A program made the position numbers and the translations under genes. A stretch of 64,000 nt of DNA, taken from positions 437,840 through 501,839 of the forward strand of contig CAVSKL010000004.1 of assembly GCA_963728475.1 (NCBI GenBank). The letters run 5' to 3'. Of this stretch, positions 6,082 to 6,553 are shown piece by piece (positions within the stretch are counted from its first letter, which is position 1; every line of letters begins with the position of its first letter). Under the pieces are notes generated by a model. The model did no database searches. It was not told the DNA's origin and was given only the letters and a program-made list of their open reading frames with translations. The DNA is from Candidatus Eiseniibacteriota bacterium (GTDB lineage: Bacteria; Eisenbacteria; RBG-16-71-46; JABDJR01).

Positions 6082-6169
6082 GGAGAGGTGCGAGAGCGGT
6101 CGAATCGGGCGGTCTCGAAAACCGTTGAGCCTCCGGGCTCCGAGGGTTCGAATCCCTCCCTCTCCGCCA
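6082..6169 (+). tRNA. tRNA-Ser (anticodon CGA)
   Basis: GGAGAGG acceptor, anticodon loop CTCGAAA, long variable arm, and a T-arm plus 3' end identical to tRNA-Ser(GGA) (GGTTCGAATCCCTCCCTCTCCGCCA). Confidence 0.85.
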
Positions 6170-6553
6170 GAGGTTAGCTGTTCGGCCGATTGGCCTCAGG
6201 TCCGCCGGGAAATGGGGTCATTGGGGATGCCGTGCGAGCCGCGAAGCGGCGAGAACGGCAATCCCTCCCTCTCCGCCAGAACGGAGCGACCGAGGCAGTT
6301 GGCCTGAGGTCGCCGCCGGGGGCGGGGGCATCGGGGATGGCGTGCAGCGAGCGCAGCGAGTCGCGCGCCAATCCCTCCCTCTCCGCCAGAACGGAGCGAC
6401 CGAGGCAGTTGGCCTGAGGTCGCCGCCGGGGGCGGGGGCATCGGGGATGGCGTGCAGCGAGCGCAGCGAGTCGCGCGCCAATCCCTCCCTCTCCGCCAGA
6501 ACGGAGCGACCGAGGCAGTTGGCCTGAGGTCGTAGCCGGGGGCGGGGGCATCG
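6170..6553. repeat. 110-bp tandem repeat array (variant unit B1, identical units B2 and B3, truncated B4) downstream of tRNA-Ser(CGA); each full unit ends in ATCCCTCCCTCTCCGCCA (tRNA 3' end)
   Basis: Seen directly: 6279-6388 and 6389-6498 are 100% identical. The tRNA 3'-end 18-mer recurs at 6261-6278, 6371-6388 and 6481-6498. The core CATCGGGGAYGGCGTGCRAGC is shared with the locus-A unit. Confidence 0.9.

Follow-up and report, generated by a model that had tools for sequence, protein, structure and literature searches.

The stretch of DNA analysed here, referred to as the window, comprises 64,000 nucleotides from a Candidatus Eiseniibacteriota bacterium and carries, 3′ of a tRNA-Ser gene with the anticodon CGA, an array of three and a half folded units of about 110 nt. 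The tRNA gene, called by ARAGORN and by the Rfam tRNA model (52 bits), lies on the forward strand at positions 6082–6169 and encodes its own CCA (6167–6169). Reading and alignment place a divergent unit of 109 nt, B0, directly behind it on the same strand (6170–6278); this unit ends in AATCCCTCCCTCTCCGCCA, with a tRNA-derived 17-mer at 6262–6278. Next on that strand are unit B1 (6279–6388, 110 nt; reading, alignment and folding) and unit B2 (6389–6498, 110 nt; reading and Tandem Repeats Finder), which is 100% identical to B1. The fourth unit, B3, is truncated to 55 nt (6499–6553, forward strand); by reading and alignment it is identical to B1 at 53 of the 55 positions (CC>TA at 6533–6534), it is broken within the core between CATCG and GGGA, and from 6554 the sequence passes into a different repeat of 222 bp. 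Tandem Repeats Finder reports a period of 110 with 2.7 copies and 98% matches over 6259–6553. An earlier reading made from the nucleotide sequence by itself (the sequence-only reading) had described the array in this form, and ARAGORN, Rfam, Tandem Repeats Finder and alignment all agree with that description.

Exact matches to the 17-mer TCCCTCCCTCTCCGCCA number six in the window, two at the 3′ ends of its tRNA-Ser genes and four at positions 3263, 6262, 6372 and 6482, although only about 0.95 matches would be expected by chance even with three mismatches allowed. Because the 17-mer is preceded by AA in B0, B1 and B2, the identity with the tRNA extends there over 19 nt (positions 58–76), and both the 17-mer search and the alignment bear out the claim that each of these full units ends in the 3′-terminal 18-mer of the tRNA. 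The other tRNA-Ser gene (anticodon GGA; 3079–3169, forward strand; ARAGORN and Rfam) has the same 3′-terminal 27 nt as the CGA gene and is followed by a second array, found by Tandem Repeats Finder at 3153–3372 and here called locus A. Its first unit, A1 (3170–3279, forward strand, 110 nt), was defined by repeat finding, folding and the covariance model R1 described below; it ends in TCCCTCCCTCTCCGCCA, so that its identity with the tRNA is 17 nt. The second, A2 (3280–3372, forward strand; alignment and model R1), consists of a unit body and, like B3, has no terminal tRNA copy. B0 starts at 6170 and A1 at 3170, in both cases on the strand of the tRNA and with zero spacer after its CCA. The core that was said to be common to the two loci is exact only over CATCGGGGAYGGCGTGC, which A1, A2, B1 and B2 carry unchanged and B0 carries with two mismatches; the last four letters of the core as originally given (RAGC) fail for B1 and B2. 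In alignment B0 is a mosaic, its 3′ half being identical to the locus-A units at 38 of 43 positions and its 5′ half being diverged. About 30 nt upstream of the tRNA-Ser(CGA) gene there is a weak promoter-like site, TTGCCT-16 nt-GATAAC (6024–6051, forward strand), picked out by eye; it falls below the threshold of our consensus scan and resembles TTGCCG-17-GATAAT, which the scan found before the signal recognition particle (SRP) RNA gene. The same scan detected no promoter-like or terminator-like sites inside either array.

All units follow one plan, with a variable 5′ hairpin, a long 3′ hairpin (H2) and the C-rich tail CCUCUCC-G-CCA. At the base of H2 the inverted complement GGGGA is paired with positions 60–64 of the tRNA 3′-end copy, and the interior of the hairpin carries a GAG-stem-GNA-stem-CGAG module. 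In B0, where folding and covariation place H2 at 6223–6266 on the forward strand, the predicted pairs are GGGGA with UCCCU of the tRNA copy, GCCGU with ACGGC, and an inner stem GCCGC-GAA-GCGGC; model R1 locates the module GUGCGAG-CCGC-GAA-GCGG-CGAG-AA at 6232–6255 of the same strand. The corresponding H2 hairpins lie at 6333–6376 in B1, 6443–6486 in B2 and 3224–3267 in A1, with the module at 3233–3256 in A1 and at 3343–3366 in A2. A helix of GGGGA (or AGGGA) with UCCCU, a 5-bp helix and an inner stem-loop are common to all 16 distinct units of the window class. Across the alignment of these 16 units, 97.3% of the H2 cells are paired, as compared with 50–70% when the partners are slid, and 5 of the 10 pairs have changed on both sides, a value that none of 500 shuffles reached. 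The covariation across relatives that the sequence-only reading had proposed to look for is thus present and is seen in the helix next to the GGGGA pairing. Read on the tRNA-sense strand, the wobble cells of H2 are all G.U (19/19), with no A.C among them, which indicates that the folded strand is the strand of the tRNA; the asymmetry is compatible with RNA and single-stranded DNA alike. A hairpin also forms in the 5′ half; its sequence is variable, and compensatory changes distinguish the paralogues of a related locus, L006. Two further structural candidates were discarded. Pairing of the G-rich linker with the CCUCUCCGCC tail, in an acceptor-stem-like helix that would have made the unit a mimic of a tRNA minihelix, is present in the minimum-energy folds of B1 and of the L005 unit; its duplex energy over the 16 units (−8.7 kcal/mol) is no better than chance (−8.5 for shuffled linkers and −8.0 for neighbouring windows). 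A self-cleaving ribozyme of the hammerhead or hepatitis delta virus type, prompted by GAGGCCGAAGGCCGAGAAC, gave no Rfam match even at E≤10.

This plan is closely reminiscent of a known element. The tyrT repeats of Escherichia coli were among the first bacterial repeats to be sequenced (1978), and the 171-nt rtT RNA of this organism is released from the tyrT primary transcript; the distal repeats of tyrT/tyrV (rttR, RtT RNA) are reportedly those of Egan and Landy in 1978, Rossi and colleagues in 1981 and Boesl and Kersten in 1991. According to a 2024 preprint, rtT takes part in the processing of the tyrT transcript, with its mode of action still unknown there. Re-reading of the E. coli K-12 locus gave the order tyrT, a 175-nt unit, tyrV and three 178-nt units. 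Every one of these units ends in AATCCTTCCCCCACCACCA, the last 19 nt of tRNA-Tyr (positions 58–76), and holds GGGGAAGGAT, the complement of tRNA-Tyr positions 59–68, which closes the folded domain by pairing of GGGGAAGGAU with AUCCUUCCCC. The E. coli units score 133–137 bits with the Rfam RtT model (RF00391) and carry the RefSeq label 'RtT sRNA' (small RNA).

RtT and the window array are alike in that a tandem array lies directly 3′ of a tRNA gene on its strand, that each unit ends in the last 18–19 nt of the adjacent tRNA, CCA included (in the window this applies to the full B units, A1 having 17 nt), and that the inverted complement of the tRNA from position 59 onward closes a folded domain onto the tail copy. 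Both also have GNA-looped hairpins and a GAG...GAG module just 5′ of the tRNA copy, and in both the copy number varies, between strains in E. coli and between relatives for the window-type units. They differ in the host tRNA (Ser in the window, Tyr in E. coli), in the length of the unit and the number of its inner hairpins (110 nt with one vs. 178 nt with three to five), and in the 5′ part, which is a GC-rich hairpin in the window and a long AU-rich, C-rich stretch in E. coli, where it serves as a Rho-dependent terminator. Their hosts are likewise far apart, Candidatus Eisenbacteria being distant from the Enterobacteria that carry RtT. In a spread sample of 60 of the 5,426 complete E. coli genomes, 0 to 4 RtT units follow tRNA-Tyr per strain, with none in ST131 EC958, one in many strains, two in O157:H7, three in K-12 and four in some; a few RtT matches in complete E. 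coli genomes lie on plasmids (31 places).

The resemblance extends to the terminal module. Model R1 is a 24-position covariance model of that module (GAG, stem, GNA triloop, stem, CGAG) 5′ of the tRNA copy, and it was trained only on the E. coli RtT units and on Ser- and Arg-linked metagenome units of other classes, with no unit of the window type. Applied to the whole 64-kb window with filters off, its three best matches are A1, A2 and B0, at the equivalent position in each (26.6 bits, E 7e-6), and the next match scores 14.9 bits. When the module was written as a regular expression, 12 units proved to have it within 1–6 nt of their tRNA copy, where 0.02 such units would be expected. In addition, the Rfam RtT model scores 49.6 bits (threshold 45) on a unit linked to tRNA-Ser(GCT) at the metagenome locus L056, which means that RtT-type units do occur behind tRNA-Ser. 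The sequence-only reading knew of no described bacterial class with these properties, a statement that does not hold, since the 178-bp tyrT/tyrV repeats (RF00391) have the same architecture and a common sequence-structure module. Judged by sequence and predicted structure, the window array is a distant, compact, tRNA-Ser-linked relative of the RtT repeats in a distant phylum and not a new class of element.

Cumulatively, these findings lead us to favour, with somewhat better than even confidence, the interpretation that the array is the structured 3′ trailer of a tRNA transcription unit, of RtT type and cut into unit RNAs, rather than a mobile integrative element. Transcription that starts at the tRNA promoter would continue through the units. 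Each unit boundary reproduces the sequence found at the 3′ end of the tRNA itself, so the nucleases that act on tRNA 3′ ends would be expected to cut there as well, and, by analogy with the 171-nt rtT RNA, cutting would free the tRNA together with RNAs of about 110 nt ending in CCA. A co-transcribed small RNA was one of three candidates put forward by the sequence-only reading, and, by the same analogy with accounts of rtT RNA, it appears to be the best of them. Stable RNAs of comparable origin are known, such as 3′ETS-leuZ of E. coli, which is cut from the trailer of a tRNA transcript by tRNA-processing nucleases. The proposed unit RNAs would resemble such 3′ETS small RNAs in being made from a tRNA trailer by tRNA nucleases; unlike the window units, however, the 3′ETS small RNAs stem from single-copy trailers with no copy of the tRNA 3′ end, no inverted complement and no tandem array. 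The length of the array would shift by unequal recombination or slippage between units, and units could be exchanged between the tRNA-Ser loci through their common 27-nt tRNA ends; the identical neighbours B1 and B2 are the product expected of unequal recombination.

Several observations weigh against this interpretation. Model RF00391, with its gathering threshold of 45 bits, finds no match at E≤10 in 3170–3400 (A1 and A2) or in 3000–7800 (both arrays), and B1 and B2 carry a variant of the module that R1 does not match. In single-sequence, all-against-all nhmmer comparisons several unit classes stay separate and the window class is not joined to E. coli, so that a structure-aware model of the terminal module is needed to link the two and the homology rests on the architecture and the 24-nt module. 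Furthermore, intrinsic terminators lie between the tRNA and the hairpin at three loci of other classes (L064, L081, L109), which argues against obligatory co-transcription across the wider family. Whole-unit folding energies over all classes show no strand preference (p = 0.09), and the stems are nearly all Watson-Crick. Finally, the hairpin loops of the units are of the C-GNA-G type, and such triloops are especially stable in DNA, so that the units may have a role as folded single-stranded DNA.

The terminators, the nearly pure Watson-Crick stems and the triloops also suit an explanation at the DNA level, in which an integrase targeting the 3′ end of tRNA-Ser has produced the units by site-specific recombination, as miniature integrative elements or as accreted att sites; in one variant folded single-stranded hairpins may take part, as they do at integron attC sites and at the attP of CTX phage. 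Tandem integration would be expected to give a repeat of the form [tRNA 3′ end + body]n, such as is seen here, the identity with the tRNA begins in the T loop (at position 58 or 59 in 40 of the 85 metagenome units listed below), as it does at many tRNA att sites, and the hairpin rebuilds a double-stranded copy of a segment of the tRNA gene. Direct repeats of tRNA 3′ ends (17–23 nt) downstream of the gene are also the hallmark of genomic islands and of accreted or decayed elements (CIMEs), and the window arrays share with these the position of the tRNA 3′-terminal copies downstream of the gene they match. Islands, however, are kilobases long and heterogeneous in content, carry or need an integrase and have their distal att copy at the end, whereas the window units are 110 bp long, mutually homologous and structurally conserved. 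No integrase is found among the open reading frames between and beside the two window loci, which encode a secreted protein with DMFA2_C and FlgD_ig domains, a lipoprotein, TadA and DnaX. Nor does array A have a tRNA copy at its distal end, and the last unit of array B is truncated. A duplex circle of 110 bp would also be implausibly small, the structure of the unit is kept with compensatory changes across genomes, and the E. coli counterpart is chromosomal in most sampled strains and is annotated as an expressed sRNA.

Related genomes, which we reached through the neighbouring tadA gene, bear on the same question; in one related contig the gene order is the same as in the window. The number of units per locus in the window and its relatives is 0, 0, 1, 2 and 2 behind tRNA-Ser(GGA), 3.5 and 6 behind tRNA-Ser(CGA), and 2 plus a remnant behind tRNA-Ser(GCT). 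Locus L003 has six units of 107–109 bp behind tRNA-Ser(CGA) and none behind tRNA-Ser(GGA), L005 has one unit and L132 none behind tRNA-Ser(GGA), and in L006 two unit types stand in the same order behind tRNA-Ser(GGA) and tRNA-Ser(GCT), together with a 29-nt, internally deleted remnant. The expectations that the element would occur beyond this genome and would vary in copy number are therefore borne out, by units in related genomes and metagenome loci and by the difference between relatives (0 to 6 units per tRNA-Ser locus). Unit 6 of L003, like B0 of the window, is a mosaic of other units, which is a signature of recombination among units and between loci. An array-closing distal tRNA copy is present in L003, L005 and L006; it is absent at array A, and at array B a truncated unit stands in its place. 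The repeated order of the two unit types in L006 would suit site-specific recombination, but the L003 array is adjoined only by an IS30-type transposase and the arrangement of genes between the two tRNA-Ser genes is the same there as in the window. Weighing both sides, we regard recombination at the DNA level as distinctly unlikely, and the suggestion of a miniature integrative element or of att-site accretion is weakened by the lack of an integrase gene at the window loci, the missing distal copy of array A and the covarying structure. The transposase gene itself (HTH_38 and rve domains; L003 13252–14232) is on the opposite strand, about 150 bp past the six-unit array. A search of the reference-genome collection with a pattern of unit core plus tRNA end returned a single match, in coding DNA of an Acidobacteriota metagenome-assembled genome, which we attribute to chance.

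The same comparison bears on the reliability of the assembly, from which alone the exact number of identical copies (B1 = B2) is taken. Perfectly identical tandem copies of 110 bp are hard to count, and the tRNA-Ser gene is where short-read contigs from this organism and its relatives break off (L002, L130). On the other hand, independent assemblies (L003, L006, L054) also contain arrays, of 2 to 6 units, some of which show point differences within the array, and B0 and B3 differ from B1 and thereby anchor at least a multi-unit array. We thus consider it very unlikely that the identity of B1 and B2, or the copy number, is an artefact, which would in any case touch the count and not the nature of the element.

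The wider occurrence of such units was explored in metagenomes by scanning for two copies of the 17-mer spaced 80–106 nt apart, which gave at least 120 loci. About half of the matches listed are genuine tandem pairs of tRNA-Ser genes with the same period of 99–123 bp. At least 65 loci carry at least 91 units that are not tRNAs (85 of them distinct) behind tRNA-Ser genes with the anticodons TGA, GCT, CGA and GGA; among the matches listed, units stand behind every tRNA-Ser isoacceptor seen. The abundance of true tandem tRNA-Ser pairs of equal period might suggest that the units are decayed tandem duplicates of tRNA-Ser, i.e. pseudo-tRNAs, whose 3′ ends have been kept identical by gene conversion, and a short stretch of B1, AGTTGGCCTGAGG, does resemble the D arm of tRNA-Ser(GGA). 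Nevertheless, neither ARAGORN nor the Rfam tRNA model, even at E≤10, calls any unit, and the unit bodies match the 5′ two-thirds of either tRNA-Ser no better than shuffled sequences do (z −0.9 to 1.6). The inverted-complement hairpin and the module common to Tyr- and Arg-linked units are, moreover, not features of a tRNA. The missing tRNA-model matches and the lack of similarity between unit bodies and the 5′ parts of the tRNA largely refute this origin, which we consider extremely unlikely.

What the unit classes have in common is a design in which the inverted complement of the T-arm/acceptor region of the tRNA stands upstream of the direct copy. Exact inverted-complement matches of at least 8 nt are present in 20 of the 85 listed units (3.7 expected) and of at least 10 nt in 11 of them (0.3 expected), whereas tRNA matches in direct orientation are not enriched in these 85 units. 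Four loci (L017, L046, L053, L056) concern a third tRNA, tRNA-Arg(ACG), a copy of whose own 3′ end lies 170–240 nt downstream of the gene; the stretch before this tail copy contains the T arm in inverted orientation, AATTCGAACTCCCGAC, as well as GNA-looped hairpins with the CGAG-stem-CGAG module among them. These stretches resemble RtT-type units, here linked to a third tRNA identity. The family proposed by the sequence-only reading is thus real, being found in L003, L005, L006 and many metagenome loci, while the supposed specificity of the kind for the 3′ end of tRNA-Ser is not supported, since such units stand behind tRNA-Tyr in E. coli and behind tRNA-Arg at the four loci. A search of the literature available to us found no general description of repeats bearing a tRNA tail behind tRNAs other than Tyr. 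A separate, well-conserved class was also noted behind tRNA-Ser, at about 21 loci among the matches listed (e.g. L013, L031, L071, L099), with the sequence GGTCCTTCGCTGCGCTCAGGATTTCGCC...GGCTCAAGTTCGAATCCC; here 24 nt match the tRNA, from position 53 onward, formation of the T stem is impossible, and the class has neither an H2-like fold nor the module.

The point at which the tRNA identity starts also allows for copying through RNA. Here a reverse transcriptase would switch template onto the CCA end of a tRNA or unit RNA and stop at the modified A58, adding a tail of 18–19 nt per unit, and the complementary DNA would recombine at the tRNA gene, as in the Mauriceville retroplasmid of Neurospora. 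The copied segment does begin mostly at position 58 or 59 (40/85) and measures 19 nt in E. coli, and 18–19 nt is the length that is read from a tRNA primer up to the methylated residue m1A58; the tail and the inverted complement, furthermore, match the local tRNA in each case (Tyr, Ser and the Ser variant of Xanthomonas). Yet the start is not fixed and ranges from position 51 to 60, no reverse transcriptase was seen near the loci (no search aimed at one was made), and unequal recombination is a simpler account of the arrays. The same architecture is present, moreover, in E. coli, a bacterium not known for m1A58. We accordingly give copying through RNA hardly any credence.

Homologous units can be recognized in an annotated small RNA as well. 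The consensus of the Rfam model of sX4 (RF02223), an sRNA of Xanthomonas, consists of tRNA-Ser(CGA) followed by GAUUGUGGCGACUAG...CAUUGGGGGGUGAGA, which aligns with the 5′ hairpin and the core (CAUCGGGGAYGG) of the window units. The model stops in the middle of H2, so that it covers the tRNA and half a unit; the comparison was made through the Rfam model. On the window, RF02223 scores 27.5 bits at 3068–3236 and 25.3 bits at 6079–6222, below its threshold of 70; these scores come mostly from the tRNA, and the alignment extends about 65 nt into the unit with motifs in common. The sX4 model therefore appears to be essentially tRNA-Ser(CGA) plus half of a homologous unit, and this would explain the several 'sX4' copies among the tRNAs of other genomes (PMC11124144). 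On Northern blots sX4 measures 280–300 nt (Schmidtke et al. 2012, PMC3300014), so that Xanthomonas must make a transcript that exceeds the mapped 156 nt. This blot and the RefSeq label of the E. coli units are indirect evidence for the putative release of a stable RNA of unit length.

From these comparisons, RtT-type units appear to be widespread behind several tRNAs, keeping an exact tRNA tail and usually having its inverted complement nearby. A bolder proposal, which we put forward as a speculation and hold to be unlikely, is that they form one ancient class across phyla (Enterobacteria, Xanthomonas, Eisenbacteria and uncultured soil, peat and marine lineages) attached to Tyr, Ser and Arg tRNAs. 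In the Tyr and Ser cases examined, the tail and the inverted complement both match the tRNA that the unit follows. If the class were indeed ancient, this match would imply either that the units are actively re-templated from the tRNA next to them or that a conserved function depends on a hairpin-held, exact mimic of the 3′ end of that tRNA. Such a function could consist in decoying or sensing a factor by which the 3′ ends of tRNAs are read, for example in the link to the stringent response proposed for rtT.

The significance of the window array lies in the contrast with E. coli. The same design stands behind tRNA-Ser in a very distant, GC-rich lineage, pared down to 110 nt, and dozens of metagenome loci have it behind tRNA-Ser or tRNA-Arg. 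By comparison, the design would be able to dispense with the long AU-rich stretch, the additional hairpins and the small 'tpr' reading frame, whereas the exact tRNA tail, usually its inverted complement, and the GAG-hairpin-GAG module are kept. The comparison thus yields a minimal unit and a comparative data set for covariation analysis, and it corrects annotation in two respects: Rfam sX4 would be a tRNA-Ser with half a unit, and RtT is not confined to tRNA-Tyr.

Several features in the vicinity of the array deserve mention. The 222-bp repeat into which B3 passes is present in two copies (6551–6982, forward strand), the similarity of which to the units was judged by eye only. Each copy opens with the unit-core-like sequence CGGGGGATCGTGG, and the first closes with GTTCGCCCCTCCATCCACGC, a degenerate version of the tRNA tail; the repeat is possibly an enlarged, decayed type of unit, its membership being uncertain. 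Both copies hold a perfect palindrome, GGATGTGGACCC/GGGTCCACATCC, a third near-copy of which lies at 12889–12904; the palindrome was found in none of the 133 loci examined. Further downstream, positions 7606–7626 (forward strand) hold GGAATCCCTCCCTTGCCGCGG, a degenerate version of the tRNA-Ser 3′ end that may be left over from the end of an older array; the SRP RNA gene follows about 170 nt later. At two metagenome loci, L093 and L070, an RtT-like unit stands immediately upstream of the SRP RNA gene; these units belong to another sequence class than those of the window. The SRP RNA is of the large type in the window (7795–8060; Bacteria_large_SRP, 195.7 bits) and of the small type in L070 and L093.

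Other tandem repeats in the window and its relatives are of a different kind. A perfect 28-bp repeat, CCCCCGTCCCATCCCTGGCCCCCCCGCC, occupies 7244–7473 of the window (8.2 copies, 100% matches), about 115 nt downstream of tRNA-Ala(CGC), and a different, C/T-rich 28-bp repeat follows the tRNA-Ser units of L006 (10944–11035). Nested repeats of 30, 60 and 120 bp with up to 90% matches, in which GGx and GCx codons are frequent, extend over 39856–40175 of the window; they lie in apparent coding sequence and probably represent a repetitive protein.

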